From a virus (Duplodnaviria > Heunggongvirae > Uroviricota > Caudoviricetes), in IMG/VR virus record IMGVR_UViG_646206259_000006: DNA of 17,564 bases. One strand, 5' to 3'. Below, piece after piece: positions 1,123-16,696 of the stretch (position 1 is the first letter of the stretch; every line of letters begins with the position of its first letter). The position numbers and the translations under genes were made by a program. A model generated the notes under the pieces. It had not been told where the DNA came from and did no database searches. It saw nothing but the letters and a program-made list of their open reading frames with translations.

Positions 1123-1341
1123 ATGACAGCACACAAGCCAGCATCATCAGCTATCCCAACAACTGGATACATCCGTCGCTTTCGCATGCCGGAATTGCTA
1201 GGTGTTTCACTGCCTACTATTGATAGATGGGTTAAAAATGGCACTCTTCCACGCCCAGTGAAGCTAACAGATAACGTGACTGCGTTTGATGCGGTGGAAA
1301 TTAATAACTGGCTGGCAGAACGCCGCGGGAAGGTGGCCTGA
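1123..1341 (+). CDS. alpA: AlpA-family phage transcriptional regulator / excision-associated DNA-binding protein (72 aa)
   Basis: Small protein with the characteristic AlpA/prophage CP4-57 regulator HTH segment (RMPELLGVSLPTIDRWVKNGTLPRPVKL...NVTAFDAVEINNWL). GAGAGG RBS about 10 nt upstream. Stop overlaps the next start. Confidence 0.8.
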   Translation: MTAHKPASSAIPTTGYIRRFRMPELLGVSLPTIDRWVKNGTLPRPVKLTDNVTAFDAVEINNWLAERRGKVA

Positions 1342-1772
1342 TGGAAAAGAAAAACCGCCCATTACAGGCGGCTAATTCAGATATTCGCGTATCTGATATT
1401 ACGCCCCTTACAAAATCCCTTCAAGCACCAAAGCGCACACCGAAAAAGCATCGTGCCCGAGTCTATATGCTGCGTACTGGTATAGAGGGATGGACAGAAA
1501 ATGACATTCTTCGCTACTGCCGTCTGTCTTCTGGTCGTAACTATGCAACAGAGTTAGAACGCCAGCTTGGAATCACTCTGGAGCGTATCGACGAAAAGAA
1601 TCCTGATGGTATCGGAACACACCTTCGCTACCGTTTCTCCTGCCGTGGTGATGTTCTGAAAGTGATCACTCATGTTAACCATCTTGCGAACATAAATGAT
1701 CACAACGGACTTTCTCAGCAGGAAATTGCCGACATTCTGAAACTCTACCCGGACGCGTTTAACGCCGCCTAA
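1341..1772 (+). CDS. Hypothetical protein (143 aa), translationally coupled to alpA
   Basis: ATG overlaps the alpA TGA stop (TGATG). Basic N-terminus (PKRTPKKHRAR). No recognisable domain. Confidence 0.55.
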   Translation: MEKKNRPLQAANSDIRVSDITPLTKSLQAPKRTPKKHRARVYMLRTGIEGWTENDILRYCRLSSGRNYATELERQLGITLERIDEKNPDGIGTHLRYRFSCRGDVLKVITHVNHLANINDHNGLSQQEIADILKLYPDAFNAA

Positions 1773-1784
1773 CGGAGACTAAAA

Positions 1785-2618
1785 ATGAACATCGAAAAAA
1801 GCAGATTAATTTCTGAGGCCGCCCCTCATCTGAACGCCTCTCTGGGCACAATTAACGGTAATGAATTTGCCGCAATTGTCCCGGTTATTTCTGGTCATAT
1901 AGGTGGGCGTGAAACCAATATTGTTAGCGCAAAAGCGTTACACAAAGCGTTGGGCGTGGGAAAAGACTTCTCTACATGGATCACTGATCGCATCTCTGAA
2001 TATGACTTCACCATTGGGCACGATTACTCAGTCCATAAAACAATTTCCCCAAATTTGGGGAAAAGCCCGAATGGCGCGGCTTACAGCAAGATTAAGCACT
2101 CTGGCAGACCCGGCAAAGACTATCTGTTAAGTGTCGGAATGGCGAAAGAACTGGCAATGATCGAACGCAATGATCAGGGTCGCGCTATCCGTCGTTATTT
2201 CATCCAGTGCGAGGAAGAATTACAGCGTACCGTGCCTGAAATCGCCGCCCGCTATCGTCGCCAGCTAAAAGCCCGTATCAGTGCCGCAAACAACTTTAAG
2301 CCAATGTGCGATGCGCTGAACATGGCCCGTGCCGAGCAGGGGAAAACGACGCAGCAACACCACTACACAAACGAGAGCAATATGATTTCTCGTATCGTTC
2401 TTGGTGGGCTAACTGCTAAGCAGTGGGCGCGGATAAATGGCTATTCTGGCGAACCTCGCGACCATATGAACGCAGAACAGCTTGAGCACCTCTCATATCT
2501 CGAAAGCACCAATATCACGTTAATTGATATGGGCATGGAATATGAGCAGCGCAAAGGAGAACTCACCCACCTGTCGCAACGCTGGCTCGCCAAGCGTCTG
2601 GAGGCGCTCAATGTCTAA
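1785..2618 (+). CDS. Phage antirepressor-like protein (AntA/KilA-C-type), 277 aa
   Basis: GGAG RBS upstream. Sequence flavour of AntA-type antirepressor N-domain (…MIERNDQGRAIRRYFIQCEEEL…). Assignment is from memory of the family, not a search. Confidence 0.6.
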   Translation: MNIEKSRLISEAAPHLNASLGTINGNEFAAIVPVISGHIGGRETNIVSAKALHKALGVGKDFSTWITDRISEYDFTIGHDYSVHKTISPNLGKSPNGAAYSKIKHSGRPGKDYLLSVGMAKELAMIERNDQGRAIRRYFIQCEEELQRTVPEIAARYRRQLKARISAANNFKPMCDALNMARAEQGKTTQQHHYTNESNMISRIVLGGLTAKQWARINGYSGEPRDHMNAEQLEHLSYLESTNITLIDMGMEYEQRKGELTHLSQRWLAKRLEALNV

Positions 2619-2790
2619 GCCAACAGGAATACCACAACCACAAAAACGCTACAAAGATGCCCACGGAGCACTCGTTACTGTCGAAAGCGTGTCTCACAAC
2701 CGAGTGACGTTTTATCGCGACGGGTATCAATCGCCATGCGTACAACCGCTGGCGCGTTTCATGAAGGAGTTCGCGGAGGTTAACCAATGA
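2611..2790 (+). CDS. Small hypothetical protein (59 aa), possibly DUF4222-like
   Basis: ATG at 2611 preceded by GGAGG (2600-2604) and overlapping the upstream stop. The ORF-track call from 2524 is probably an over-extension. Confidence 0.5.
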   Translation: MSKPTGIPQPQKRYKDAHGALVTVESVSHNRVTFYRDGYQSPCVQPLARFMKEFAEVNQ

Positions 2791-3854
2791 TACCCGTCCA
2801 GAAGAAGACATTTTCACTGGCTGGTATGTCGCCAAAATCCAGCAATATGACAGCAAAGTCAGACATTAATACAGCAGATACAAGCAAAGTTTATCATTTG
2901 CTGGTGGTAGGAGCGGATGCCTTAACTATGTCAGAAATTACGGTCGATGGTGTTAGCGTTGAGAAGGTCAGCGGCTATGCCAGAGAATTTCTGGTCGTAG
3001 ATGGCTTTCTCTGCTCGTGTAGTGACTCCACAAAAACCTTCGTCCACGCGCGTGACGTTAACGAAATGAGCGCGATGTACTGTGCTTCTGGTTCTTCCAA
3101 TAGTGAGTTTTCGGAGTCCATAAAAAAGAGCTTGCCGTTATGCGGCAACACGGTTTATGGTTATAAGGCACCTCATAAAACGGGTGCCGGGATTGGCGTC
3201 CTGAAAATTCTGAAGGCGACATATGACGCGCCGAGCGTCTTTTTTTATGTCGTAGGTCTGACTCACCCATTTTTTGGGCGTTGGTGTATAATCCAGCGCC
3301 TTTGTCAATCAATGGTGGCTCAGGCGGGGGCTTCTTCGGAAGCGCCGGTATCCTTCAGAGCCGGTTACGCCAACCCTGTCTGGGCTACCACCAGCGAAAT
3401 TGGCGTTTCCGGTGGTAGCGTAACCTGCTATCTGAAGGAGGCTGCCACATGCTGGCTACTACCCCTACCCAAAAAACGCAATTTATCTGGATTATCGCCG
3501 CAGTTCGCCGCGATTGCCCGACAATTACCGCCAAAATTCATCATATTGCTGCCGAGTCTGAACGCGATGCTCGCCGTTCTCTGGTGCGCGATCACATCTG
3601 CTTTTTTGCTGGTCGTATCCGCATGGAGGTGGCACATGATTAAAAACTACGATGTGCATATGGATCCCCTCGAACGCACAAGCCAGATCATCACACTGAC
3701 AGAAGTGATTAACGACATTCTGGTGAGCAACTCTCCCTCACGAGACGAAAGACTGAAGGCGTTACTCGCGATATTGGATCTCGCCGTTCGTGACGTTCAT
3801 TTCCTGCTGGAAGGTGGCGAAATGCCAGTAAAAACGGGGGCAACCAATGAATAA
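2787..3854 (+). CDS. Hypothetical protein (355 aa as an uninterrupted ORF); 3' third may be a separate small gene starting at ATG 3636
   Basis: ATGA start/stop overlap with the upstream gene and GGAGG RBS at 2775-2779. No in-frame stop until 3854. The stretch about 3240-3636 is W/C/L-rich like a non-coding frame. ATG 3636 has its own GGAGG RBS. Confidence 0.45.
3449..3643 (+). CDS. Alternative small ORF (64 aa) nested out of frame inside the 2787..3854 ORF
   Basis: Strong RBS GAAGGAGG (3434-3441) 7 nt before the ATG. Protein-like composition. Frame opens after a TAG at 3416-3418. Cannot be real together with an intact long ORF unless genes overlap extensively. Confidence 0.3.
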   Translation: MLATTPTQKTQFIWIIAAVRRDCPTITAKIHHIAAESERDARRSLVRDHICFFAGRIRMEVAHD

Positions 3855-4041
3855 CTCAATTAATACCCCTCGCCTTACGTCCGCACTTCAATTAATCGAG
3901 CAAGCAGCGGCTGTCCTGGTTGCTGTCAGTCTTTCGGCTGAAGAAATGGACGCTACTGATGTCGTGGATGCGATTAAAGCGTGCTCATCTTTGGTTAACG
4001 ATGCCCGTGCAGAGCTGGTAATTCTTGGGGGTGAAAAATGA
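3847..4041 (+). CDS. Small hypothetical protein (64 aa)
   Basis: ATG overlaps the upstream stop (ATGAATAA). Part of a coupled chain of small ORFs. Confidence 0.5.
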   Translation: MNNSINTPRLTSALQLIEQAAAVLVAVSLSAEEMDATDVVDAIKACSSLVNDARAELVILGGEK

Positions 4042-4301
4042 ATATCAACTTAATTTATCGTCATCCGTGTGAGCTGGAAATTGAATCATTGCTGAGCCGT
4101 GAAGAGCCATATCCAGACACATTCACTCTTGCAGATCGCACGACTGAACGGCTTACCAGAGCGCGCACAGGTCTGGTTCATGTGATGAATGAGATTCTTC
4201 CATCGGTGGGAGGGGAACAGGCGACAGTAATCAATAGCTGGCTACAAAAAGTTACCTCCCTGATAGATATCAGTTTAATCGATGTGGAGAGTGCGAAATG
4301 A
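4038..4301 (+). CDS. Small hypothetical protein (87 aa)
   Basis: ATGA start/stop overlap with the upstream ORF. Confidence 0.5.
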   Translation: MNINLIYRHPCELEIESLLSREEPYPDTFTLADRTTERLTRARTGLVHVMNEILPSVGGEQATVINSWLQKVTSLIDISLIDVESAK

Positions 4302-4519
4302 CCAACATCCAGCTCATTGAAGCGCAATGTCGCATCGAACAGGTTCAGACTGTTTTAGGGTTCTGGCTTGAAGGGGCCAGCCCAAGCAACAGAGACAAGT
4401 TAATGATTGGCGCGGTTATGTCACTGCTCAATGGCGTACCAGAAGCTATTCAGGAAGCGGACGAATTGTTGGGCAAATATGAGTTACAGAATCATTCAGG
4501 CGAGGCGAAACATGAATAA
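4298..4519 (+). CDS. Small hypothetical protein (73 aa)
   Basis: ATGA start/stop overlap with the upstream ORF. GGAGAG upstream. Confidence 0.5.
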   Translation: MTNIQLIEAQCRIEQVQTVLGFWLEGASPSNRDKLMIGAVMSLLNGVPEAIQEADELLGKYELQNHSGEAKHE

Positions 4520-5114
4520 TTTCTTAACCTTCCATGCAGAAGCAACGCCTGACGGCGTAAACATCATGCACCGCAGCAACAATGGCATGACAGAACGCGT
4601 TGAGACCGTCTCATATATTGATGCCGTAAATCGTCTGGATGCCGGGGATTATGACGATAAACCAGATGAAGGCATGTTTATACATCTCGCTATTGCCAGT
4701 GGCGGCAACCAGGGATATTTCGATTACACATCACAGCATCACGTGATTATGTGGCGCTGGCTGATAGCAACAGCATTAATCAATGAAATGAGAAAGGAAA
4801 ACGGCACCGTCAGCATTATTGATGACAGTGGCAATCATTCCGTGGTTTCTGTTTATTCCAATGGCATCGTCGCCATGCCGCTGTATCCAGTAGCAGAGCG
4901 CCTCGCTATGGCAAACAACATTGAGGGCGCAATGATCGAGAAATATGGTGTTGATGTCGGAACAAAGAATGCCATCATTTTTTACAGCAACATGTTCGAT
5001 GTCGAACAGGGAACACTCACTTCGTTTGGGCGAGAAGTGCTTGCCGATCTTCACAACAGCTTTATTGCCGAACTAAACGAAAACGGCATCCCAGAAGCAC
5101 CAGTGACGCACTAA
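4512..5114 (+). CDS. Hypothetical protein (200 aa); alternative longer start at 4407
   Basis: ATG 4512 overlaps the upstream stop (ATGAATAA), matching the coupling pattern of the operon. The 4407 start would overlap the previous gene by about 110 nt. Confidence 0.55.
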   Translation: MNNFLTFHAEATPDGVNIMHRSNNGMTERVETVSYIDAVNRLDAGDYDDKPDEGMFIHLAIASGGNQGYFDYTSQHHVIMWRWLIATALINEMRKENGTVSIIDDSGNHSVVSVYSNGIVAMPLYPVAERLAMANNIEGAMIEKYGVDVGTKNAIIFYSNMFDVEQGTLTSFGREVLADLHNSFIAELNENGIPEAPVTH

Positions 5115-5126
5115 ACGGGGGCCAGA

Positions 5127-7478
5127 ATGCGAAACATTGATCTTATCCGTCAGGTTATCAGTGCGTCTGAAAACAACTGGCCTCATGTGCTGGGCTGCCT
5201 GAACATAAATGTCCCTGACTCTCCGCGCCGTCATGCTCCCTGCCCTGCATGTGGGGGCAAAGACCGATTCCGGTTCGATGACAACGGGCGCGGTAGCTTC
5301 ATCTGTAATCAGTGCGGCGCTGGTGATGGGCTGGATTTAATTAAACGCGTAAATAACTGCGACACAACAGAGGCGGCGCTGCTTGCCGCTGATGTTCTGG
5401 GTATTGATTACCGGACAACGGAAACACCAGAAGCCACCAGCCAGAAACGGGAACAACTGGAAACCGAGCGCCAGCGACGCGAACAGGAGCGCCTGAAAAG
5501 GGCAGAGAAGGACGAACAACAAAGACGGGATACGTTTTCCCGTCAGTTTGATGACATGCGCAGAAAGGCTGTAAACGGCAAATCTGATTATCTGGTTGCG
5601 AAAGGGGTAGGTGATTTTACATTCCCTGTGTTGCCCGATGGATCTCTGTTGCTGGCGCTGGTGGATAAATCCGGCGCAGTTACAGCAGCACAGACTATTA
5701 CCTCACATGGTGAAAAAAGACTCCTGACAGGTTCAGCAAAGCGAGGGGCATATCACGCCATAAACGCACAGAAACGACCTCACAGCATCATAATTGCTGA
5801 GGGGGTGGCTACCGCCCTGTCGTGCCATTTAATTCGCCCTGACGCAATGACAGTGGCAGCAATCGACGCTGGCAACCTGTTGCCAGTAGCGGAAGTCATG
5901 CGCAGAACATATCCACAGGCACAAATCATCATTGCCGCAGATAACGATCACCAGCAAGGAAACTCCGAAAGTGGAGGGATCAACACGGGGAAAGATGCCG
6001 CAGAGAGGGCCGCTATTTCCGTAGCTGGCTGGGTGTCTCTGCCACCGACTGACTATAAAGCCGACTGGAACGACTATCACCAACAACACGGGCTGGCGGC
6101 AGCCACAGCAGCATTTAAAGATTCGATGTACCAGCCACGGGGGAAAGGGGCGCAGGTGAAAAATCACAAACAGTCAGTCGGGGCGCTGAATGAGATCAGT
6201 TCTGGCGAGGTGTTAAGCGATGATGAAATTGCTGTCCTCGAAGAAATCAACCGGACGTTTACGCATGTCACCATCGGCGGGAAACACAAGGTGGTGTCGC
6301 TAAAGCCTTCTCAAACCGGCGGTGTATCGCACGTTTTCGAGGATTTATCACAATTTCAGCATTATTTTCATCATAAACCGAGAGTCGCCAGAAAGCTGGC
6401 GGGATCGGCGTGGCTGTCATGGAGTGGGAAGAACTACAAGCCAGGAGGCGTAGGATTTTATCCAGTACCAGACAAATGCCCTGACGATGTTTTTAATCTG
6501 TATGAGGGGCTGGCACTGGAACCAATTGAAGGAGATTGCACGGTATACCTTAATCACCTGTTGCAGGTTGTCTGTGCCGGTAATGAAGAGGCATACCAAT
6601 ATCTTATCCAGTGGATGGCGCACATTATCCAAAAGCCTGATGAAAAACCGTCCGTGGCAATCGTGATGAAATCTGTCCCGGGCACAGGGAAAGGCACAAC
6701 GGTTAAACCGCTGCTGCAAATACTGGGGCAGTACGCCGCCCACATTAACGGGGCGGGACATATTTCAGGGCGCTTCAATTCAATACTTGCTAACAAGCTA
6801 CTGGTATTTGCTGACGAAGTGACGATCCACAAGCCGTCTGAAGCTGACAGACTTAAAGCGATTATTAGCGAACCGACGTTTAACCTTGAGCGCAAGGGAA
6901 TTGATGCTGAACCAATGCCGAATTTTGCCCGGTTGATATTTGCCAGTAACAGCACACAGGTATTACAGGCAGGGATAAGAGAGCGCCGCTATCTCGTGCT
7001 TGAGCCATCTCCTGAAAAAGCACAGAGCCGGGAGTATTTTGATCGGCTGTACAGTTGGCTTAATGATGGCGGTGCCGCAAAGTTGCTTTGGCATCTTAAA
7101 GGGGTGGATCTCTCAGGTTTTGACCCTCAACGAGCGCCACAGACCGATGCCTTACGTGAAGAAATCTTGCTGGGGCTGTCTGGCGTTGAATTGTTTCTTT
7201 ATGGCGAGCTAATCAATGAACCTCCGTTTAATGGCGAAGTCCGTTTGTTTGCAAAGGATATGGTTAGTCGGTTTGTAGCGTGGTCGCTTGAGCGTGGGGA
7301 AAAGCTTAAAGAACCAGCTGCCAGATCACTACTGGGTAAATCACTTGCACAAATGGGGCTGGTGAAGCATGGAAGACCAGACCGAGGGAATGGCGTGTTC
7401 TACGAACTACCAGAGGTCGGAGTTCTACAGGCTGCGTTTGCCCGTCTGATCGGTATGGGGGGTTATGATGTTTTTTAA
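5127..7478 (+). CDS. P4-alpha-like primase-helicase (783 aa)
   Basis: N-terminal CxxC…CxxC zinc-binding motif (CPACGG…CNQCGAG). TOPRIM-like segment (IIIAEGVATALS, IIIAADNDHQ). C-terminal P-loop (VPGTGKGT) and DExx-like box (LLVFADEV). Iteron cluster immediately downstream. Confidence 0.85.
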   Translation: MRNIDLIRQVISASENNWPHVLGCLNINVPDSPRRHAPCPACGGKDRFRFDDNGRGSFICNQCGAGDGLDLIKRVNNCDTTEAALLAADVLGIDYRTTETPEATSQKREQLETERQRREQERLKRAEKDEQQRRDTFSRQFDDMRRKAVNGKSDYLVAKGVGDFTFPVLPDGSLLLALVDKSGAVTAAQTITSHGEKRLLTGSAKRGAYHAINAQKRPHSIIIAEGVATALSCHLIRPDAMTVAAIDAGNLLPVAEVMRRTYPQAQIIIAADNDHQQGNSESGGINTGKDAAERAAISVAGWVSLPPTDYKADWNDYHQQHGLAAATAAFKDSMYQPRGKGAQVKNHKQSVGALNEISSGEVLSDDEIAVLEEINRTFTHVTIGGKHKVVSLKPSQTGGVSHVFEDLSQFQHYFHHKPRVARKLAGSAWLSWSGKNYKPGGVGFYPVPDKCPDDVFNLYEGLALEPIEGDCTVYLNHLLQVVCAGNEEAYQYLIQWMAHIIQKPDEKPSVAIVMKSVPGTGKGTTVKPLLQILGQYAAHINGAGHISGRFNSILANKLLVFADEVTIHKPSEADRLKAIISEPTFNLERKGIDAEPMPNFARLIFASNSTQVLQAGIRERRYLVLEPSPEKAQSREYFDRLYSWLNDGGAAKLLWHLKGVDLSGFDPQRAPQTDALREEILLGLSGVELFLYGELINEPPFNGEVRLFAKDMVSRFVAWSLERGEKLKEPAARSLLGKSLAQMGLVKHGRPDRGNGVFYELPEVGVLQAAFARLIGMGGYDVF

Positions 7479-8721: not shown

Positions 8722-9085
8722 CAAAAACAGCGATTTTCTTTATAAGGTATGTTTTGCTCATCTGGCAGACGGAGGTATTCGCTGCGGTTTGGCACATAGC
8801 CCAGAACAGCAAAGAGTTTTACGAGACTTTTGTAAAATCCAGTGTACAAGGGCGTGACGTTTTTGAAGGTGAGCACTACGAAATTTTCGTAGTTCAAAAA
8901 ATAGCCTCTGAGATGTTGTTATGCCTGTTCAGCAAACCATCCGCATAGCTGATCGCGAATCAAATTACCAATGGAGCCAGAAGCAAGGGCAGAACTGGAA
9001 AGCGCCTGCCGTGAAGAGTAATGCGACTCCATAAATATAGTTTTTAGAGTCCATAAAAAAACTGTCAAAACCTGACATACAGAAC

Positions 9086-9119
9086 GATGCCACCAGCTAC
9101 TGAACGGTGGCATTTTTTT
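9086..9119 (+). terminator. Rho-independent terminator (8-bp stem, 11-nt loop, T7 run)
   Basis: ATGCCACC (9087-9094) pairs with GGTGGCAT (9106-9113), followed by TTTTTTT. Separates the replication module from the downstream cargo operon. Confidence 0.6.
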
Positions 9120-9216
9120 GTGCTATTTGTTTCATATTTTGCAATCACAATGATGAATGTTGCGTTTTATGAAACTATAATGACTGTTGTTTTATACAGT
9201 TCTAAGGGGGGCGTTA

Positions 9217-9389
9217 TGGCTATTTCAGTAAAGCCAGTATTGATAAGTGAGAAGCAAATGGAAGCGATAAAGAAAATTCAGGAGGAGCAGCGTAAAAAAT
9301 CAGAGGTAGGAGTTGCGCCAACGATCCACGAAATTGCTCGGGGATTAATGGATAAGGCGCTGGCTTACACTTTAACTGGACGTGGGTAA
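9217..9389 (+). CDS. Small hypothetical protein (57 aa), possibly ribbon-helix-helix-like DNA-binding
   Basis: AAGGGGGG RBS 5 nt upstream. Perfect -10 TATAAT at 9176-9181. The ORF-track call from 9087 is likely an over-extension. The RHH guess is from the beta-strand-then-helix pattern only. Confidence 0.45.
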
Positions 9390-9393
9390 ATTT

Positions 9394-10737
9394 ATGGCTA
9401 CGTGGCAACAGGGTATTAATTCTGGTGGTTTTCTGGCTGGCATCGGTGCGCAAAATGAGAATGCGCCAAAGGCAAGCGACATTAACGCAACGCTTGGTCT
9501 GATCCGCGAAAACAATGAACTGGCTCGCTCAGGTGCAAATAACGTTGCTCTGACAGGTCTTCGTGGTCTGGCTGGAGTTGCTGACATTTATAAGCAGCAG
9601 CAACAGCAGGAACGTAAAGCGGCATTCCAGAAAGGTTATGCAGATGCTTATGCGTCCGGTGACAGGGAGCAGATGCGTAATCTTATTACAGCATTCCCAG
9701 AAGAGTTTGAGGAAGTCCGTAAAGGGATGAGTTATGTCGATGATGCTCAAAGGGATGATTATGGCAATCTGGCGCTCAAAGCACAGGTAGCCTCATCGCT
9801 TGGTCAGGGCGCATTTGGCAGGTTCATGATGGATAATGAGCAGGAGATGCGTCGTTTAGGTATCCCTCCAGAAACTATTGCTGAAATGCAGGTTAATGAC
9901 CCGCAGGGCTTCCAGCATTTCGCAGGTAATCTGGCGCTGTTTTCTCTCGGTCATGAGAAGTATTTCGATATCAAAGATCAAATGGAAGGTCGTCGACTTG
10001 AGCAAGGGCGACTGGATGAAAGTATGCGTCAGGCTGACATGGAGAACGCGAGAGGATGGGCAAATATCCAGAACGCTCAACTAGACAGGGCTCAGCGAGC
10101 ACAAATTCACTCAGATGAGATGGGATTGAAGCTAATGGAGCTGGGGCAAAAAGGTAAGCCGTCAGCAGACTTAATTAAGGGATTAAATTCTGACATTACC
10201 AATTTTGGCAAAAATTATAACTCTGTCAGAGCGGCGGCAAACTCTCTGCAAGCCCTTAGCAAGGTAAATACTGGCGCTGCCCAACTTGGGATTATCTTCA
10301 ACTACATGAAATCTCTTGACCCGCAGTCAGTCGTTCGTGAAGGCGAACAGGTTCAGGTAATGCGGTCTGATGGCATATGGGGACAAATCAAAGGATACAT
10401 AGACCAGCTTAATGCTGGAAACGGCCTGTCGCAGGAGGCAAAGGATAACATTGTTAACGCCGCAAAAATCAACGCCAATGCTATGGGGCAGCAGTTTAAC
10501 CAGCAGGTTGACGAGTATCTCGATACATATGGAGAAACTATTCCTCAGGGGCTAAGAAAAAGCCTTGAAAGAAGGAAAGCGAAGCTATTTGACGATGTTT
10601 CCGGGCAGCCTACATCACAGGCTGGCACTGGACAGGCAAAAGCGGCAACCGGAGGAATATCAGAAGGCGCAACGGCAACCAACCCTAAAACTGGTCAGAA
10701 AATCATTTACAGGAACGGAAAATGGCAGCAAATGTAA
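9394..10737 (+). CDS. Hypothetical large protein (447 aa from ATG 9394; alternative GTG start 9382), Q/N/A-rich and predicted largely helical
   Basis: Long ORF with coding-like composition. No catalytic motif seen (no P-loop, HNH or PD-(D/E)xK). Low-complexity poly-Q stretch (QQQQQ). Flavour of phage internal/ejection or scaffold-type proteins; function unknown. Confidence 0.6.
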   Translation: MATWQQGINSGGFLAGIGAQNENAPKASDINATLGLIRENNELARSGANNVALTGLRGLAGVADIYKQQQQQERKAAFQKGYADAYASGDREQMRNLITAFPEEFEEVRKGMSYVDDAQRDDYGNLALKAQVASSLGQGAFGRFMMDNEQEMRRLGIPPETIAEMQVNDPQGFQHFAGNLALFSLGHEKYFDIKDQMEGRRLEQGRLDESMRQADMENARGWANIQNAQLDRAQRAQIHSDEMGLKLMELGQKGKPSADLIKGLNSDITNFGKNYNSVRAAANSLQALSKVNTGAAQLGIIFNYMKSLDPQSVVREGEQVQVMRSDGIWGQIKGYIDQLNAGNGLSQEAKDNIVNAAKINANAMGQQFNQQVDEYLDTYGETIPQGLRKSLERRKAKLFDDVSGQPTSQAGTGQAKAATGGISEGATATNPKTGQKIIYRNGKWQQM

Positions 10738-12839
10738 TCTTACCGGAAGGTTTTGTGCTCGATGAACAACCTGATAACTCACAGTTTCCTGATAGTTCAC
10801 AGCTTCCTGATGGTTTTGTGCTTGATGCCCAACCAGAACAGCAGCAATCACCTTTGGTTTCACCAGAGGAAAATTCCAGACAGGAAAATGTTGTTAATAA
10901 TGCTAACGGTTTCGACCGTTTTATGTATGGCGTTCTCAGTGGATTGATGGATGTTGGTAAAGGTGTTGGCCTGTTTCAGGATATGACACCAGAAGAGCAA
11001 GCCGCAATTCAGTCTCTACAGCAGAAGTTAGCGGCAAAACCATCAACCGCACAAGATGTTGGTGAGTTCGTTGGACAAGCAGCGCCATTTGTTAGTGGTG
11101 GTGGGATTATTTCTCAGGTTCCCAAAGGGGCGGCAAGACTGGCTGCCGCCGTAGGGCTTGGTGCTGGAGAAGGGGCTATTGTAGCCAATGGAACAAATAG
11201 CGATGTTGCTTCCGGCGCTGCTATTGGCGCTGTGGCTGGCCCTGTAGCCGAACTTGCTGGCCCTGCAATTAATAAAATAGCTGGGAAATTAACCAAGAAG
11301 AATGTTTCTTCGATTCCAGATATTGAGGGGATTACTCCTGCCGAAGAGAAAATTCGTAAGTTATCTGCACAAGGCAACCCAAATCTTGCCTCTTCGCTTG
11401 AAGGGCTAGATCTAAAACCTCAGAAAGAAATTGTTGAGGCTGCAAATAGGCTTCATGTTGATTCAGTTCTTCCTTCTCATTTATCAGGAAATGAGCAATA
11501 CCAAGCTGTAGAGCAAGCCCTAAAGTCACGGACAGGATCAGCGTTAAAAGCTCAAGAAGATAAAGCAATAAGCGAATTAGCCTCTAGTGCTGACAAGATA
11601 ATCGATGATGTTGCTGGTGCGCCAGATGCGTTAGCTATGAGCGAAAAATATATTTATCAGATAAATAGTAGAATGGAAGCACTAAAAAACCGTAGTGATC
11701 AGTTATATAAACGTGTTGATTCCGCTCTATCACCAAGAACAAAAGTCGAAGCAAATAACACAAGCACTATGCTGGAAAAAATCGCTGATGATTTAGGAGG
11801 GTGGGATAATCTTGACCCAATAGAAAAGCGAGTTTTTACAGCAATAAACCCCGGCCCAGATAGCATCCTAACGTATGCAAATTTAAACAGGCAAAGGCGT
11901 TTAGTTGGTGATGCCCTAAATAAAAAGCAGGGGCCATACAAAGATGCTGATAAAGAAGCGCTATCAAGACTATATGGAGCTTTAGCTGAAGACCAAAAAT
12001 CTGTCTTATCCAATACTGGATACTTGCGAGATTTCGAAGTCGCACAACGCCTTGTAGCTATGAGAAAAAACTTAGAAAGGCAAATGGTAAATCTTCGCGG
12101 GAAAACACTTAATGGGGATATAGCGTATAAAGTAACGAATTCTCTTCAATCTATGGCAAAAGGTGATGCGAGAGGGTTTCGTGAGATTATGCAAAATACT
12201 CCATCAAGAACATTGCGAAGGGAGCTAGTAGGAACAGCATTAAGAGATATGCTTTCCTCTGGGAAGCGTGGGGCCGACTTTAATCCATCTGGCTTTGCAG
12301 ATTGGTGGCAAAACTTGCAACACAGTGGACAGCTAAAGACTTTGGCTGAACATTTGCCAAAAGAAACAATGAGCGGACTATATGATGTATACAAAGTTGC
12401 CAGAGCAATAAAAAATGCTAAAGCGCATGAAATATCTACTGGTAAGCTGAATGAGTTTGTAAACAGATTTAATCGGGTAACAGCTCCATACGAACTAGCA
12501 GCAAAACACATTCAAAAAATAGGCACGATGGTAGGCGCTCATTTTGGATCGCTTGGAGCCATTGCTGGGGCTGATATTGGAGCAAGATTGGCGAGTAAAG
12601 CTCGATTAGCTGGTGGAGCAGGGGCGGCTGATGCTGCGGATAAATTAATTGCCTCGCCAGCCTTCCAGAGCGCAGTAAAAAATCTACACGGAAAAGCGCC
12701 TGGGCACATTGTTGATTCACGTATCAGGCGCTCCCCTCAATGGAAGAGTTTTTTTAACTCTCTTCCTGAACAGGAAAAACGGACCATCGCCAGACTGGGC
12801 ATCATTACTTGGCTATCTAATGATCCAGATAATGACTAG
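10722..12839 (+). CDS. Hypothetical large protein (705 aa) with N-terminal tandem peptide repeat, Gly/Ala-rich segments and a long helical middle
   Basis: Overlaps the upstream gene by 16 nt, so co-transcribed. N-terminal repeat PEGFVLDEQP / PDGFVLDAQP. GxxxG-rich segment (GLGAGEGAIVANG…AIGAVAGPVAELAGPA) and C-terminal Gly/Ala hydrophobic stretch (GAHFGSLGAIAGADIGARLA). No enzymatic motif recognised. Confidence 0.6.
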   Translation: MAANVILPEGFVLDEQPDNSQFPDSSQLPDGFVLDAQPEQQQSPLVSPEENSRQENVVNNANGFDRFMYGVLSGLMDVGKGVGLFQDMTPEEQAAIQSLQQKLAAKPSTAQDVGEFVGQAAPFVSGGGIISQVPKGAARLAAAVGLGAGEGAIVANGTNSDVASGAAIGAVAGPVAELAGPAINKIAGKLTKKNVSSIPDIEGITPAEEKIRKLSAQGNPNLASSLEGLDLKPQKEIVEAANRLHVDSVLPSHLSGNEQYQAVEQALKSRTGSALKAQEDKAISELASSADKIIDDVAGAPDALAMSEKYIYQINSRMEALKNRSDQLYKRVDSALSPRTKVEANNTSTMLEKIADDLGGWDNLDPIEKRVFTAINPGPDSILTYANLNRQRRLVGDALNKKQGPYKDADKEALSRLYGALAEDQKSVLSNTGYLRDFEVAQRLVAMRKNLERQMVNLRGKTLNGDIAYKVTNSLQSMAKGDARGFREIMQNTPSRTLRRELVGTALRDMLSSGKRGADFNPSGFADWWQNLQHSGQLKTLAEHLPKETMSGLYDVYKVARAIKNAKAHEISTGKLNEFVNRFNRVTAPYELAAKHIQKIGTMVGAHFGSLGAIAGADIGARLASKARLAGGAGAADAADKLIASPAFQSAVKNLHGKAPGHIVDSRIRRSPQWKSFFNSLPEQEKRTIARLGIITWLSNDPDND

Positions 12840-12858: not shown

Positions 12859-13284
12859 TCAATCTTTATTCTTTGAAATAGAGTCATTGATCTTTTCGAA
12901 ACACCAATGAAATCCACAAAAGAGAGCTACACCAATATAACAATACAAAACTATCAACCACCTTTCAGTGTCCGAAGGGTAAAAAACATCAATTACATAA
13001 GCAACACCAATTGGTATTAATGCTAGTAATAACATCGACACAGGACGTACAAACTTCTGAACTATATCAATTTTATAGAACCACAAGGCGGTATGTTTAA
13101 TGATATAAGTAAAGATGGCTGCGCCAATAATGGCAAAAAACACCATCGATAAAGTCGGGTATAACTTTGCGACAATTAAACCCAACAAAATAATTATAAC
13201 TGCCTGCCCCCTCACACCAACCCTCCCTTTAGCTTTGTTTAGAATGGCAATCATCATATATCCAAGACATGGCATTTGGTACAT
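12859..13284 (-). CDS. Small integral membrane protein (141 aa, about 4 predicted TM helices); function unknown
   Basis: Four hydrophobic stretches of about 18-20 aa (AVIIILLGLIVAKL, MVFFAIIGAAIFTYII, SMLLLALIPIGVAYVI, LIVLYCYIGVALFCGF). Convergent with the 705-aa gene, separated by 19 bp containing a small GGCCA-cgga-TGGCC hairpin. Confidence 0.5.
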   Translation of the reverse strand: MYQMPCLGYMMIAILNKAKGRVGVRGQAVIIILLGLIVAKLYPTLSMVFFAIIGAAIFTYIIKHTALWFYKIDIVQKFVRPVSMLLLALIPIGVAYVIDVFYPSDTERWLIVLYCYIGVALFCGFHWCFEKINDSISKNKD

Positions 13285-13375
13285 AGCTTGGGTCGGGATT
13301 TCAAATCCGCTCCCCGTTGATGGGGCCGTTACAGTACGCGCATATCCGCTTTATGTGAAACAGGAAGATTTTTCT

Positions 13376-13476
13376 GATATCACTGCCACAGCAAAACACC
13401 AATTTCGTGACCAGTACGCGCGCGAGGGGTATCAGTTGCAAAAATTTTGCAACCACGTCCGACCAGTACGCACACG
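13376..13476. repeat. Non-coding repeat block: two copies of an alternating-CG motif (CCAGTACGCGCGCG / CCAGTACGCACACG) flanking the inverted repeat TTGCAAAA-A-TTTTGCAA (13436-13452)
   Basis: Direct reading. A related roughly 55-bp sequence recurs at 16285-16338 and a shorter copy at 13688-13711. Confidence 0.5.
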
Positions 13477-13687
13477 ATGGCGGGGGATACCATGAAACTG
13501 TTCTCTACACGAGACAGAGTGGTGGTGATGTGTTGATTATCGGCGTATATGCGCACAGGACGCGCTATGACGATGTTTTATGCGGGTACACCAATCACAT
13601 GTATCTGGTGTGATAAATCGCGTTACATGACCTCTCATGTTGTGCTGGTGGTTATCACGACTTTCTGAATCTGGCCTTTGCCTGATA

Positions 13688-13711
13688 TTTTGCGACAAGT
13701 ACGCGCGCGTA
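13688..13711. repeat. Third copy of the CG-alternating motif, containing the perfect palindrome TACGCGCGCGTA
   Basis: Direct reading: TTTGCGACAAGTACGCGCGCGTAGC. Confidence 0.45.
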
Positions 13712-14165
13712 GCATCGAAATTATCGGATGGCGTATGCTGCTGGCAATATGAAGACCGATAGTATTAACCGAAAAGCGAAAGAGCTTCTCGATAACGGCA
13801 AGATCGCGGCAAGGGTTGCTGAATTTGAACAGATGTAAGGAATGGAACCAGAGAGGCGCTGGCGGCGAAAAAACGCCACTACCAGCGGATAAATGTGCCA
13901 ATCTTTTAGTTGGAAAAACAGCATAGAAGGCTACCATGATATGTAAAGATTGCTCAAAAAGTTATTATCAACGTCTAATTTCATTAAAAATGCTCCTTAT
14001 TGCTGTTAAAAATCAAAGAAATCATTTAAAAACCGTTCAACACCCCCCATCTGTCTTCAAAAAGATTTGTGTTGGTTAGTGACTAGTTACCTTTTATATG
14101 TAAATATATCCACAAGGGAAGTGGTGAAAATTTCGACTATTTAACCATAATCAAAGGAGGTGAAC

Positions 14166-14648
14166 ATGTCGAATACATCTGCACATGCCCTCTTGAAAGA
14201 TATCTGGGGCGATAGGAAATTCCCGGTTGATCCAGTATGGATTGCCAATGAGTTAGGGTTGGATGTTGTTGAAACCACGCTTGATGATGATGTTTCAGGC
14301 GCATTGCTGAAAGAGCCAGAACAAGATCCAGTAATCATACTCAATCGTAATGATAGTAACGTGCGCAAACGATTTACGTGTGCGCATGAGTTAGGGCATT
14401 ACGTCAAACGAACTGAGAACGGTCAGCCACTTGAATATGAGTTTGTTGATTACCGCGGAAAACTGGCAAGCCAAGGTGTAGACAGCGAAGAAATATTCGC
14501 CAATAACTTTGCAGCATGTCTTCTCATGCCAGAAAAAGAGGTTCGACGCCTCAACAATGCAGGATATGCACCAGTAATGATGGCTTCCTATTTTGGTGTA
14601 TCCGATGATGCTATACGTTATCGCCTAAAGAATTTAGGGCTTCGATGA
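14166..14648 (+). CDS. ImmA/IrrE-family (DUF955-type) zinc metallopeptidase (160 aa)
   Basis: AGGAGG RBS (14155-14160). HEXXH zinc-binding motif (CAHELGHY) in the context typical of ImmA/IrrE peptidases. No HTH domain detected in the protein itself. Confidence 0.7.
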   Translation: MSNTSAHALLKDIWGDRKFPVDPVWIANELGLDVVETTLDDDVSGALLKEPEQDPVIILNRNDSNVRKRFTCAHELGHYVKRTENGQPLEYEFVDYRGKLASQGVDSEEIFANNFAACLLMPEKEVRRLNNAGYAPVMMASYFGVSDDAIRYRLKNLGLR

Positions 14649-14651
14649 GTA

Positions 14652-15029
14652 ATGACGTCTAGATCTTACGCTATATCTGAAAAACTAAAGCAAGCGGCAA
14701 GACAAGCCAGAGGTGAACCAGCCTCTGGCTCATCTCCATCAGCAAAAACCCTCACACATCTAAATGATAAGGATCCAGCCAAAGCCCATCAGCGTGCAAA
14801 AACAAAAGATTTAAAAACAGACACAAAACTGAAAAAAATGTTTGCTCGGTGGTTTATCGGCATTCTGATAGGCCAGCTATTAGTTATGAATGGGATTTTT
14901 GTCCTTATTGGAGCAAAACTGCTCCATTTTAGTGATTTCGTTATAAACCTATTTATGGGGGGAACCCTCGCTGAAGTCTTTGGCATTGTTTTAGTGATGG
15001 CACGCTACCTGTTCTCCAAGCACGTCTAA
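14652..15029 (+). CDS. Small membrane protein (125 aa): basic hydrophilic N-terminus plus two C-terminal TM helices; coupled to the peptidase gene
   Basis: ATG 3 nt after the peptidase stop. Hydrophobic stretches FIGILIGQLLVMNGIFVLIGAKLL and LFMGGTLAEVFGIVLVMARYLF. Confidence 0.5.
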   Translation: MTSRSYAISEKLKQAARQARGEPASGSSPSAKTLTHLNDKDPAKAHQRAKTKDLKTDTKLKKMFARWFIGILIGQLLVMNGIFVLIGAKLLHFSDFVINLFMGGTLAEVFGIVLVMARYLFSKHV

Positions 15030-15045
15030 AAATCAAAATATAGGG

Positions 15046-15489
15046 CTACATTCTTAGAGCCACTGATAACTTTTCAGCATTGCTTCCCTGACGCTTCCAC
15101 GCGCTGTAAATGTCTTTATCCCATGCTTTACCAGCTTTTGTTTGATAGCCTGCTTCATTGAGCCGTTCCGCTATCACACGCCCATTATCAAATCCCTGTT
15201 GGATGGTATCGGCAATGATCTTTATAACTGCCGTTTCGTTATATGGCTTTGGTGGGATGTTCGGCTTTCCGGCAATAAGCGACGCAGCGGCTTTTTCCAT
15301 GCGCTCCACCAGCCCAAGCATTCGTGAATCAATAGACTTTTCCGGCTGTCCCAGCTTCATGCGAATCGCATCAACAAGCCAGGAGGTTTTATCCCCTCCA
15401 GAAGCGAGAACAGACCGATTAAACTCATCCTGCAATTCAGATGGGATGCGGAACGCGATCAGATTAGATTTGCTCATTGCAAAGACCAT
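15046..15489 (-). CDS. Putative DNA-binding regulator (147 aa): ribbon-helix-helix-like N-terminus with a serine-recombinase 'Recombinase'-domain-like C-terminal segment
   Basis: N-terminus NLIAFRIPSELQDEF…SWLVDAIRMKL resembles the RHH fold (Arc/MetJ/CopG). C-terminus IAERLNEAGYQTKAGKAWDKDIYSAWKRQ resembles the LNxxGxxTxxGxxW motif of the recombinase DNA-binding domain. Start could be ATG 15489 or 15477; neither has a clear SD. Confidence 0.5.
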   Translation of the reverse strand: MVFAMSKSNLIAFRIPSELQDEFNRSVLASGGDKTSWLVDAIRMKLGQPEKSIDSRMLGLVERMEKAAASLIAGKPNIPPKPYNETAVIKIIADTIQQGFDNGRVIAERLNEAGYQTKAGKAWDKDIYSAWKRQGSNAEKLSVALRM

Positions 15490-15590
15490 ATCAGTGAGTA
15501 ATATCCATACAGTATACCACTGTATAACACTGTTATACGCTCAAATATCAGCCAGAAAATAACGGACCAATCACAAAGCTATCGCTGTGT

Positions 15591-15735
15591 TGTTGGTTCA
15601 GAGCTGGGCTGTGTTGGTTCAAAATGAGTTGATGTTGGTTCAACATTTCAGAAAAAACACAATAAAAACAACGATCTTTACAAATTAAACCAACTGAACC
15701 AACTGAACCAACACCTTTTTGCTTATCTATATAAT
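15591..15735. promoter_or_regulatory. Divergent promoter/operator region: three direct TGTTGGTTCA repeats at 21-bp phasing (15591, 15612, 15633), two tandem inverted copies TGAACCAAC (15695-15712), and a perfect -10 TATAAT (15730-15735) for the plus-strand gene
   Basis: Direct reading. The inverted copies sit where the -35 of the PerC-like gene promoter would be. A related half-site TGTTGGTTAG occurs near 14071-14080 upstream of the peptidase gene. Confidence 0.55.
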
Positions 15736-15748
15736 CTGAGAGGCAGAA

Positions 15749-16036
15749 ATGATAAGGGACAGGAAAGCTGAAGAGCTGGAGTCAAAAGGGCTATACCGGA
15801 GAGCTGCCGCACGATGGGCAGAAGTCATGATGCTGGCAGATGGCGATAAAGAACGTGAACATGCAGCAAACAGACGCTCTGAATGTATCCGTAAGGCGGC
15901 ACGCCCACCAGCAACTACAGACAGATTCGGAGATTTAAGACAGGCAGTTAAGCGGACTCATTCGGCTCTTGGTATGGATGAGGAAGCGAGAGGGTACTTC
16001 AGGCGTTATCGCGATAAAGATTGCCAGAGACAGTAA
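15749..16036 (+). CDS. PerC-family transcriptional regulator-like protein (95 aa)
   Basis: N-terminal AEELESKGLYRRAAARWAEVM matches the conserved PerC/Pch N-terminus as remembered. GAGAGG RBS. Confidence 0.55.
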   Translation: MIRDRKAEELESKGLYRRAAARWAEVMMLADGDKEREHAANRRSECIRKAARPPATTDRFGDLRQAVKRTHSALGMDEEARGYFRRYRDKDCQRQ

Positions 16037-16284
16037 TGCTCTCTCTCTGTTTTGGCAAATTCCCCCTCACTTTGAAGGGATCGGAGCTATAAAAATGGTG
16101 TTATCCGGCTTCCTGCATTGTAGGTTTTCGAAAAAATCAATGGGTTAGGTCATCGTGCAAATTTGCACTCTGCCAGCCAACGCAATTTCTCGTTGGCGAA
16201 AATATCAGGTATTTACTGAACGAACGGTCTACCAGTCTATTCAGTTACCAGTTGCACATGGCTGTTTCATGTGAGAACGGAGGT

Positions 16285-16338
16285 TTTTTCGGACATCACT
16301 ATTGGTTACAGCAATTTCACGAGCAATACGCGCGCGCA
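16285..16338. repeat. Fourth copy of the CG-alternating motif family (ATCACT…CAATTTCACGAGCAATACGCGCGCGCAGG), related to 13376-13428
   Basis: Alignment by eye: shared blocks ATCACT, ACAGCAA, CAATTTC and TACGCGCGCG in the same order. Confidence 0.45.
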
Positions 16339-16553
16339 GGACAACAAGCCTGAACATAGTTACACACCTCGATCGTGAGGGATGTAGACAATGGCTTCTG
16401 GCCAAAGCACCCGAAAAAAACCGTGTACATAAGGGTGTACATAATCAAAAACCGCATTAGAAATAAACCAGCTTCAATGCGGCATTGAAGCCAATACTCT
16501 ACAAACAGATCCAAATAACTCGTAACGCCAATTCTTCCTTTTCAGCCTTCACA

Positions 16554-16675: not shown

Positions 16676-16696
16676 CAACTGTATATAAACACAGTT
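16676..16696. promoter_or_regulatory. LexA (SOS) box-like palindrome AACTG-N11-CAGTT upstream of dinD
   Basis: AACTGGTATATAAACACAGTT read directly. Canonical LexA boxes are CTG-N10-CAG, and this site is one base longer between the CTG and CAG half-sites. Confidence 0.5.

Follow-up and report, generated by a model that had tools for sequence, protein, structure and literature searches.

We analyzed the operon at positions 9150-12839 of a 17,564-nucleotide (nt) stretch of viral DNA (IMG/VR record IMGVR_UViG_646206259_000006, Caudoviricetes; the whole stretch is hereafter called the window) and found that, behind a small leader gene, it encodes homologues of gp20 and gp16, two ejection (E) proteins of phage P22. 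The P22 E proteins exit the virion and build a conduit across the periplasm and the inner membrane, in which gp20 is the periplasmic conduit protein and gp16 the inner-membrane DNA-transfer protein. The element carrying the operon is not a prophage; it is a phage satellite resembling P4 and the phage-inducible chromosomal islands (PICIs), and it belongs to the family of the Escherichia coli island EcCIMP1. Phage satellites redirect capsid size, steal packaging specificity or make capsids of their own; the entry step has, to our knowledge, been assumed until now to be wholly the helper's job. We consider it probable, at roughly 60%, that the operon is the helper-exploitation (morphogenetic) operon of this satellite and supplies its own gp20 and gp16 for the particles that the satellite hijacks.

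The operon consists of three open reading frames (ORFs) on the plus strand, all present as originally listed: a 57-amino-acid (aa) leader ORF (9216-9389) with a strong Shine-Dalgarno sequence, AAGGGGGG, just 5' of it, a 447-aa ORF (9394-10737) with an ATG start, for which the mechanically called ORF starts with GTG at 9382, and a 705-aa ORF (10722-12839) that overlaps the 447-aa ORF by 16 nt. The 447-aa protein matched the Pfam family PF16928 (Inj_translocase, "DNA/protein translocase of phage P22 injectosome") over residues 12-219 with an E-value of 2.5e-73 (246.8 bits against a cut-off of 29.7), and it matched phrog_917, annotated as "released from the phage upon host infection", over residues 1-357 with 4e-132. 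It aligned without gaps over 447/447 aa with Kapi1_057, the gp20 of the isolated Lederbergvirus Kapi1, at 75% identity, and it was 53% identical to ST104 gp20 over residues 1-219, of which residues 1-60 were identical. We assign the protein with confidence, on this homology, as a full-length ejection protein of the P22 gp20 family. Its gene lies outside a 7-20-16 late-operon block, the place of gene 7 being held by the 57-aa satellite gene, with no virion genes around.

Membership of the 705-aa protein in the gp16 family was judged via PHROG 770; the Pfam copy used was one without the gp16 family PF26808, in which P22 gp16 itself gave no match. Its match to phrog_6704 (7e-175) covered the full length, and it also matched phrog_770, "DNA transfer protein", with 9e-51, residues 113-654 aligning to profile positions 134-647 of 668; P22 gp16 itself is found in phrog_770 with 2.3e-266. 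Kapi1_058, the protein in the gene-16 position of Kapi1, was 41% identical to it end to end and about 95% identical over the N-terminal ~180 aa, and the gp16-position proteins of the Shigella phage Sf101 and of APC_JM3.2 were 62.5% identical to it over residues 204-701. The overlap between genes 20 and 16 is 16 nt in Kapi1, as in the window. The 705-aa protein did not significantly match the P22-type gp16 of ST104 by BLASTP (E = 0.2), which is expected because the gp16 types are mutually just 22-26% identical (PMC10883804). The protein can thus be classified, with confidence, as a P22 gp16-type DNA-transfer protein. PDB sequence searches gave no match for either large protein, so that neither has a solved relative by sequence.

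The original prediction had described the two large proteins as low-complexity, devoid of enzymatic motifs and reminiscent of phage pilot or ejection proteins, but as impossible to assign. The compositional bias toward Ala, Gly, Gln and Asn was real (A 11.4, G 10.7, Q 9.8 and N 7.2% in the 447-aa protein; A 12.6, G 8.5, Q 5.4 and N 5.7% in the 705-aa protein; no cysteine in either), whereas low complexity was not, the sequences being biased but ordinary. The resemblance to ejection proteins was correct, as was the lack of an enzymatic motif: the transglycosylase domain present in the gp16 of EcCIMP1 and of Serratia satellites is absent from the gp16 allele of the window. With the Pfam, PHROG and Kapi1 matches given above, the view that the proteins cannot be assigned was wrong.

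The leader gene and its promoter belong to the backbone of the satellite family, and the large genes are a cassette joined to it. The leader protein has 45 homologues in Escherichia, Serratia, Klebsiella, Raoultella, Erwinia and Salmonella, whose alignment contains 21 invariant columns, and the leader in the window is 87% identical to the 53-aa ORF that occupies the corresponding position in EcCIMP1. In E. coli, at least three different gp20/gp16 allele pairs occur behind one and the same leader gene. The match to P22-like phages at the DNA level, in stretches that are 87-92% identical, begins within ~10 nt of the gp20 ATG, placing the junction just 5' of gp20. The segment comprising the leader gene and promoter was found in 499 genomes, and the family in ~9% of complete E. 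coli genomes. "Helper-exploitation module" therefore fits the operon better than "cargo", the term used before. The leader protein itself gave no match in Pfam, PHROG, NCBIfam, PADLOC or a PDB profile search. Its AlphaFold2 (AF2) monomer model shows an extended N-terminus followed by two helices at moderate confidence (predicted local distance difference test score 73), and Foldseek found no fold match for this model in the PDB; a ribbon-helix-helix regulator was suspected, but we assign the protein to no family.

The operon is insulated and separately promoted, as the original prediction had proposed, and both signals on which that proposal was based were upheld. The upstream block of replication genes and a 245-aa gene is closed by an intrinsic-terminator-like hairpin followed by U7 (9078-9121, plus strand; AUGCCACC-N11-GGUGGCAU) with a folding energy of -19.9 kcal/mol (z = -4.9 versus shuffled sequences); a consensus terminator scan also detected 9096-9111, and the relatives have a different GC hairpin with a T-run at the same spot. 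The -10 hexamer TATAAT of the operon promoter can be read directly at 9176-9181 (plus strand) and is kept at the same place in 21/23 related loci from many genera. No -35 element was recognizable, and a simple promoter scan made no call at this TATAAT. The -35 region is filled by two plus-strand copies of a 16-bp pseudo-palindrome of the form TTTCAT-N4-TGCAAT, at 9131-9146 (TTTCATATTTTGCAAT) and 9159-9175 (ATTGCGTTTTATGAAAC), which is listed as inverted repeat I6 and whose columns TTTCAT..TGCAAT / ATTkCA..TGaAA are conserved in 23 satellites of many Enterobacterales genera; these copies are a putative operator or activator site. Directly 3' of the -10 hexamer lies a LexA-box-like palindrome, GACTGTTGTTTTATACAGTT (9182-9201, plus strand). 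The layout as a whole (two pseudo-palindromes, TATAAT and a CTGT..CAG palindrome; 9125-9215) is conserved in at least 23 satellites of ~12 genera, and the 100 nt 5' of the leader gene are conserved across genera. The operon region is also AT-richer than the replication module, as stated before, with 45.1% GC for 9150-12839 compared to 51.0% for the primase gene and 42.3% for the C-terminal part of gp16.

The pattern CTGT-N8-ACAG occurs twice in the whole 17.5-kb window, with 0.18 copies expected by chance, and the other copy is the dinD SOS box (16679-16694). When scored with a LexA position weight matrix (PWM) built from known SOS boxes, the box at 9182-9201 reached 17.4, as compared to 12.7-24.7 for the training sites and 15.0 for the 95th percentile of shuffle maxima; the dinD SOS box (16677-16696), which was outside the training set, scored 22.6. 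By sequence score, the window has what marks promoters of the LexA regulon, a CTG-N10-CAG box overlapping the promoter, and LexA control is predicted for the subgroup to which the window belongs. As a trait of the whole satellite family LexA control was rejected, the canonical spacing being found in only 9/23 relatives. A weak half-box-like site with a PWM score of 12.2 is also seen at 1059-1078, just 5' of the AlpA gene.

The island around the operon has the features of a satellite. E. coli PA45B and many other strains contain a region with 100% identity to the window, and the gene order in PA45B is yicC, integrase, a 216-aa ORF, an AlpA-type helix-turn-helix protein, a 143-aa ORF, AntA, DUF4222, Ash, four small ORFs, primase, two ORFs, the operon, a membrane-protein gene on the opposite strand, ImmA/IrrE, two ORFs, PerC and dinD. 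The island is 17.8 kb in size and is inserted between yicC and dinD in E. coli. Its attachment (att) sites form a 24-nt imperfect direct repeat, CGTGTACATA[GA/AG]GGTGTACATAAT, of which attR lies at 16422-16445 (plus strand) and attL 1.3 kb outside the window on its upstream side, ahead of the gene for a tyrosine integrase that is found just upstream of the window; in our locus L001 the two copies are at 9506-9529 and 27273-27296, 17.8 kb apart, and no such repeats are expected by chance. The element thus combines an integrase and att repeats with a size within the ~7-20 kb range and with an AlpA-type regulator and primase module. Scans of the ORFs with Pfam and PHROG together with the RefSeq annotation detected no gene for coat or capsid, portal, scaffold, terminase, tail or lysis; beyond the pair encoding ejection proteins, the island has no virion genes. 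The original description of a satellite-type island, not an intact prophage, was thus borne out. It had also named homology of both proteins to phage structural proteins, within an intact prophage, as the outcome that would speak against it; the homology is there, and the prophage is not.

The neighborhood of the leader gene was compared across related elements, as had been suggested. Via leader-gene homologues we collected 82 loci (taken from assemblies, from a set with one genome per species, and from IMG/VR), of which one was too short and 81 were scorable, and the content of the slot behind the leader gene was classified by BLASTP against proteins scanned with PHROGs and by further scans. 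The leader and promoter were conserved in the related satellites, and the same upstream backbone (integrase, orf143, AntA, Ash, orf200, primase and sometimes PerC) was present in 22/22 loci checked. P22-type ejection proteins, either gp20 and gp16 or gp14, gp7, gp20 and gp16, filled the slot in 17/81 loci; a set of three large internal virion proteins of podoviruses, one of which has a transglycosylase region, in 15/81; and tape-measure proteins (often with a 108-aa ORF upstream), tape-measure, Dit and hub proteins together, or hub proteins in 46/81. Only 3/81 had unassigned content, so that helper-type genome-delivery proteins occupy the slot in at least 78/81 scorable loci. By their family assignments, all recognized contents would be virion parts that exit the particle or are located at its tail tip, opening the path for the DNA. 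Some operons end in homologues of the small terminase (phrog_57 and phrog_1482; L062 11969-12490, L086 13416-14159, L008 12142-12648 and L085 10108-11076), which points to the slot operon as the satellite's helper-exploitation module. The ~108-aa ORF (phrog_19131) is conserved and lies 5' of the tape-measure gene at about 10150-10500 in L011, L022, L023, L026, L028, L029 and L031, and may be a tail-assembly chaperone.

It seems possible, although we hold this more general reading only tentatively and at somewhat under even odds, that this Enterobacterales satellite family keeps a swappable, helper-matched delivery cassette behind a conserved SOS-type promoter and leader gene, and thereby customizes the DNA injection of the particles it hijacks. 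The cassette would then consist of P22 ejection proteins or podovirus internal proteins in some members, and of a tape-measure protein with the putative chaperone, or Dit and hub proteins, in those with siphovirus-type helpers. If so, escape from injection-blocking exclusion or defense, or a match to the recipient envelope, could follow. In our literature searches, no paper came up in which ejection or tape-measure proteins encoded by satellites are discussed as a mechanism, and the family-wide delivery-protein slot appears to be undescribed so far. The operon in the window is a further member of the recent and barely characterized EcCIMP1-type satellites with P22 ejection genes.

The ejection genes of the satellites appear to be maintained as functional genes. 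Between satellite copies dN/dS (the ratio of nonsynonymous to synonymous substitution rates) was 0.04 for gp20, both between the window and AF10 and in Serratia, and 0.26 and 0.11 for gp16, which shows purifying selection, as far as can be read from the sequences, on both genes. The C-terminal gp16 allele of the window was found in 87/5,426 complete E. coli genomes, all copies being at least 99% identical, in isolates from human, pig, cattle, chicken and bat, and the module is intact in most of these 87 carriers. It is present at no fewer than two att sites, with integrases that differ between them, and Serratia has the same architecture with other alleles.

EcCIMP1 is a phage-inducible chromosomal island of E. 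coli MP1 with vB_EcoP_Kapi1 as its helper (Pick, Stadel & Raivio, ISME J 2025; PMC11773190). It excises only upon induction of Kapi1 and is transduced by Kapi1 at low frequency, while the Kapi1 titers on induction are not lowered by it; for its ejection-type genes the authors proposed no more than a candidate role in DNA packaging, and they stated that they had identified no phage-like structural genes (PMC11773190). With such a relative in mind, the operon in the window could work as follows. Induction of a P22-like helper would fire the operon promoter, probably through SOS derepression at the LexA-like box. Satellite gp20 and gp16 would be packed into the helper-built procapsids, either beside the helper copies or replacing them, and after adsorption they would be expelled to form the periplasmic and inner-membrane conduit for the packaged DNA. 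Most speculatively, alleles of its own might free the transfer of the satellite from the alleles of the helper and might permit, for instance, entry into cells that block P22-type injection. Such own conduit alleles could matter because satellites must often get into cells in which a helper-type prophage is already resident. Injection is blocked by SieA, which P22-like prophages encode as an exclusion protein of the inner membrane, and the changes by which P22 escapes SieA map to the C-terminal parts of gp16 and gp20, while there is no evidence that gp7 is involved (PMC10883804). The gene pair in the island is exactly gp20 and gp16, the two SieA-escape genes, and gp7 is absent. In the MP1 pair the gp20 and gp16 of EcCIMP1 and of its helper Kapi1 are just 24-26% identical, and their gp14 is 83% identical.

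Several points weigh against helper exploitation. SieA exclusion extends even to very different gp16 and gp20 alleles (PMC10883804), so that divergence of the alleles is no guarantee of escape. The helper must contribute gp7, and gp14 for some relatives, and we assume that these are compatible with the satellite proteins. Neither a small terminase nor a pac function is recognizable in the island by Pfam, PHROG or annotation. The LexA-like box departs from the canonical CTG-N10-CAG spacing in 12 of the 23 relatives. Some copies are damaged: gp20 has a nonsense codon at position 331 in enterotoxigenic E. coli (ETEC) H10407 (L015 12095-13438), and gp16 is interrupted by the insertion sequences (ISs) IS1 or IS3 in a few genomes (copies H65, H66 and H80). 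Lastly, the census started from a single seed, the leader gene, and most of its 60 IMG/VR loci are predicted proviruses from isolate genomes; the backbone comparison covered 22 of the 82 loci.

Four other explanations of the operon were considered. The alleles are mosaic, and conserved N-termini could permit co-assembly with the rest being divergent; satellite gp20 and gp16 might accordingly be dominant-negative subunits that spoil the conduit of helper progeny or of superinfecting P22-like phages. We consider this interference or exclusion unlikely. The unaffected Kapi1 titers at induction of EcCIMP1 (PMC11773190) argue against a poisoning role, poisoned particles would carry the satellite too, and the two proteins have their full length, align collinearly with functional phage alleles and show the purifying selection expected of such alleles. 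No PADLOC defense model matches either protein, and the membrane-protein gene adjoining the operon is a more natural exclusion candidate. It is also improbable that the genes act merely as DNA identity for recombination with a replicating helper, the island then being packaged by headful as a co-integrate. The missing sign of a small terminase or pac function, the close DNA identity to P22-like phages and the low transduction frequency of EcCIMP1 (PMC11773190) would agree with such a use of the genes, but their low dN/dS indicates that the proteins are constrained; any helper segment would do for recombination, yet delivery proteins fill the slot almost throughout the census, and subfamilies with a small-terminase homologue carry delivery proteins too.

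There is only a slim chance that the operon is a functionless remnant, a decaying piece of a P22-like prophage that recombined into the island. The H10407 pseudogene, the IS-disrupted copies and the higher AT content than in the backbone may give this impression; on the other hand, the module is intact in most of the E. coli carriers, the same architecture recurs with other alleles in Serratia, the fusion to a conserved promoter and leader gene is precise, and the genes are under purifying selection. The original prediction had favored a novel toxin, a translocation-type effector or an anti-phage defense cargo, to which we can give hardly any credence. Satellites often hold defense hotspots, and a variable accessory region does follow downstream, with ImmA/IrrE here and Abi in a sister island, but this defense-type cargo is located after 13300, outside the operon. 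Both large proteins belong to ejection-protein families, and the operon proteins match nothing in PADLOC or NCBIfam, which leaves a toxin or defense system unsupported. Supply of gp20 and gp16 for hijacked particles remains the reading that we prefer.

The membrane-protein gene mentioned above encodes a small multi-pass membrane protein of 141 aa on the minus strand at 12859-13284 (12859-13254 in RefSeq), 20 nt past gene 16. Its position, on the opposite strand after gene 16, is that of sieA in P22, and it accompanies the ejection genes in islands at two different att sites. Directly behind gene 16, a genuine P22-like phage contig (L032) carries a homologue with 42% identity, and so does another satellite (L033), for which reason the block of gp20, gp16 and the membrane-protein gene was probably acquired as one. 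The 141-aa protein was rejected as SieA: BLASTP gave E = 2.1, hhalign a probability of 0.07% against the type A SieA profile, and the motif FxRYPxEAxxFNK is absent. It had no match by tblastn against 50,697 phage records and none in PADLOC. We conjecture that it is an unrelated and possibly new exclusion protein that might underlie superinfection immunity of the kind described for EcCIMP1.

The satellite backbone in the window extends over 1123-7478 on the plus strand, as judged from Pfam, PHROG and Rfam matches. It starts with AlpA (1123-1341; PF05930, 26.5 bits against a cut-off of 21), which is followed on the same strand by the 143-aa ORF, AntA (1785-2618), the DUF4222 ORF next to it, a 355-aa ORF annotated as "Ash family protein" (2787-3854) with small ORFs after it, and a P4-type primase with Zn-ribbon, Toprim and DUF5906 domains (5127-7478). 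Inside the Ash ORF, Rfam detected isrK (3168-3245, 67.8 bits) and a C4 antisense RNA (3308-3395, 79.9 bits), which suggests an RNA immunity of the P4/P1 type, and part of this 355-aa ORF may be non-coding. These RNAs, together with the type of the primase, give the element its P4-like flavor.

Downstream of the membrane-protein gene, 13300-16400 is a variable accessory region that reaches to PerC and attR and that corresponds to L015 16440-19205 and L016 16054-18780. In the window it contains ImmA/IrrE (CapP-like in PADLOC, 4.9e-25) and two ORFs, in AF10 an Abi-family protein, in ETEC H10407 other ORFs, and in the Serratia relatives L006 and L007 Abi_2 or RnlA/RnlB. The att repeat holds an internal direct repeat (GTGTACATA, two copies), and the insertion site is ~230 nt upstream of the dinD SOS box. 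In 12 of the 20 best-matching host genomes, including PA45B, a second locus matches part of 9150-11300; this could be a P22-like prophage, and thus a candidate helper, or a second satellite.

If satellites do bring their own ejection or tape-measure proteins, the injection apparatus would be a further front in the conflict among satellite, helper and host. Satellites might then also be a reservoir and exchange partner of alleles, which is a possible reason for gp20 and gp16 ranking with the most mosaic genes of P22-like phages, and genes called "hypothetical" in EcCIMP1 gain a concrete and testable function. The practical message is a modest one, namely that neither large protein is part of a new toxin or defense system.

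The closest known system is EcCIMP1. It shares AlpA, the 143-aa ORF, AntA, DUF4222, Ash, small ORFs, the primase and the PerC gene with the window; the N-terminus of its primase is 85% identical, one small ORF has the same RefSeq protein accession, and AntA and other backbone proteins have adjacent accession numbers. In both islands the leader ORF is followed by P22-type ejection genes and then by an opposite-strand envelope-protein gene, lipoprotein-like in EcCIMP1. The two differ in that EcCIMP1 has gp14 (DUF2824), gp7, gp20 and a gp16 with a lytic transglycosylase domain, whereas the window has gp20 and gp16 only; the gp20 allele of EcCIMP1 is just 25% identical to that of the window, and its integrase and att site (thrW/proA-yagU) differ from those at yicC-dinD. 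The sister island of ETEC H10407 joins the module of the window to an EcCIMP1-type integrase at the thrW/proA-yagU site.

The E proteins of the Lederbergviruses P22, Sf6, HK620, CUS-3 and Kapi1 agree with those of the window in families, gene order, gene overlap and mosaic alleles, the N-terminus of gp20 being conserved, its middle and C-terminus variable, and the gp16 types very divergent. Such allele diversity of gp20 and gp16 has been described (PMC10883804; PMC8954989). Unlike those of the P22-like phages, the genes in the window do not belong to a late operon near coat, portal and tail genes; they follow the promoter and leader gene of a satellite, and gp7 and gp14 do not accompany them.

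In function and place, the operon resembles operon I of the staphylococcal pathogenicity islands (SaPIs), which is said, after Ubeda et al. 2007, to be a LexA-repressed packaging and morphogenesis operon. Both lie downstream of a replication module, have functions of helper exploitation, probable ones in the window, and carry a LexA-type promoter box, LexA control being a prediction in the window, and the likeness extends to the relatives, several operons of which end in a small-terminase homologue. The proteins are unlike, operon I encoding capsid-size redirection proteins and the satellites ejection, tape-measure or hub proteins, and there is no sequence relationship. P4-like satellites have in common with the window a P4-type primase, an AlpA/Vis-like regulator, an Ash family ORF and a C4/CI-type antisense RNA; on the other hand, sid, psu and delta were not recognized in our scans of the window, and the helper is probably a P22-like podovirus, not P2. 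SatelliteFinder treats tail genes as forbidden components (PMC10085698), and its strict rule may exclude the relatives that bear tape-measure genes; if our reading is true, satellite finders that forbid tail-type genes under-count a common family. The capsid-forming PICIs (cf-PICIs), which provide the capsid themselves and steal the tails (bioRxiv 10.1101/2022.09.08.507074; PMC10085698), are like the island in the window in that part of the virion is encoded by the satellite itself. However, their contribution is capsid, portal and connectors, whereas that of the family described here consists of the internal ejection and tail-tip delivery proteins, a complementary set.

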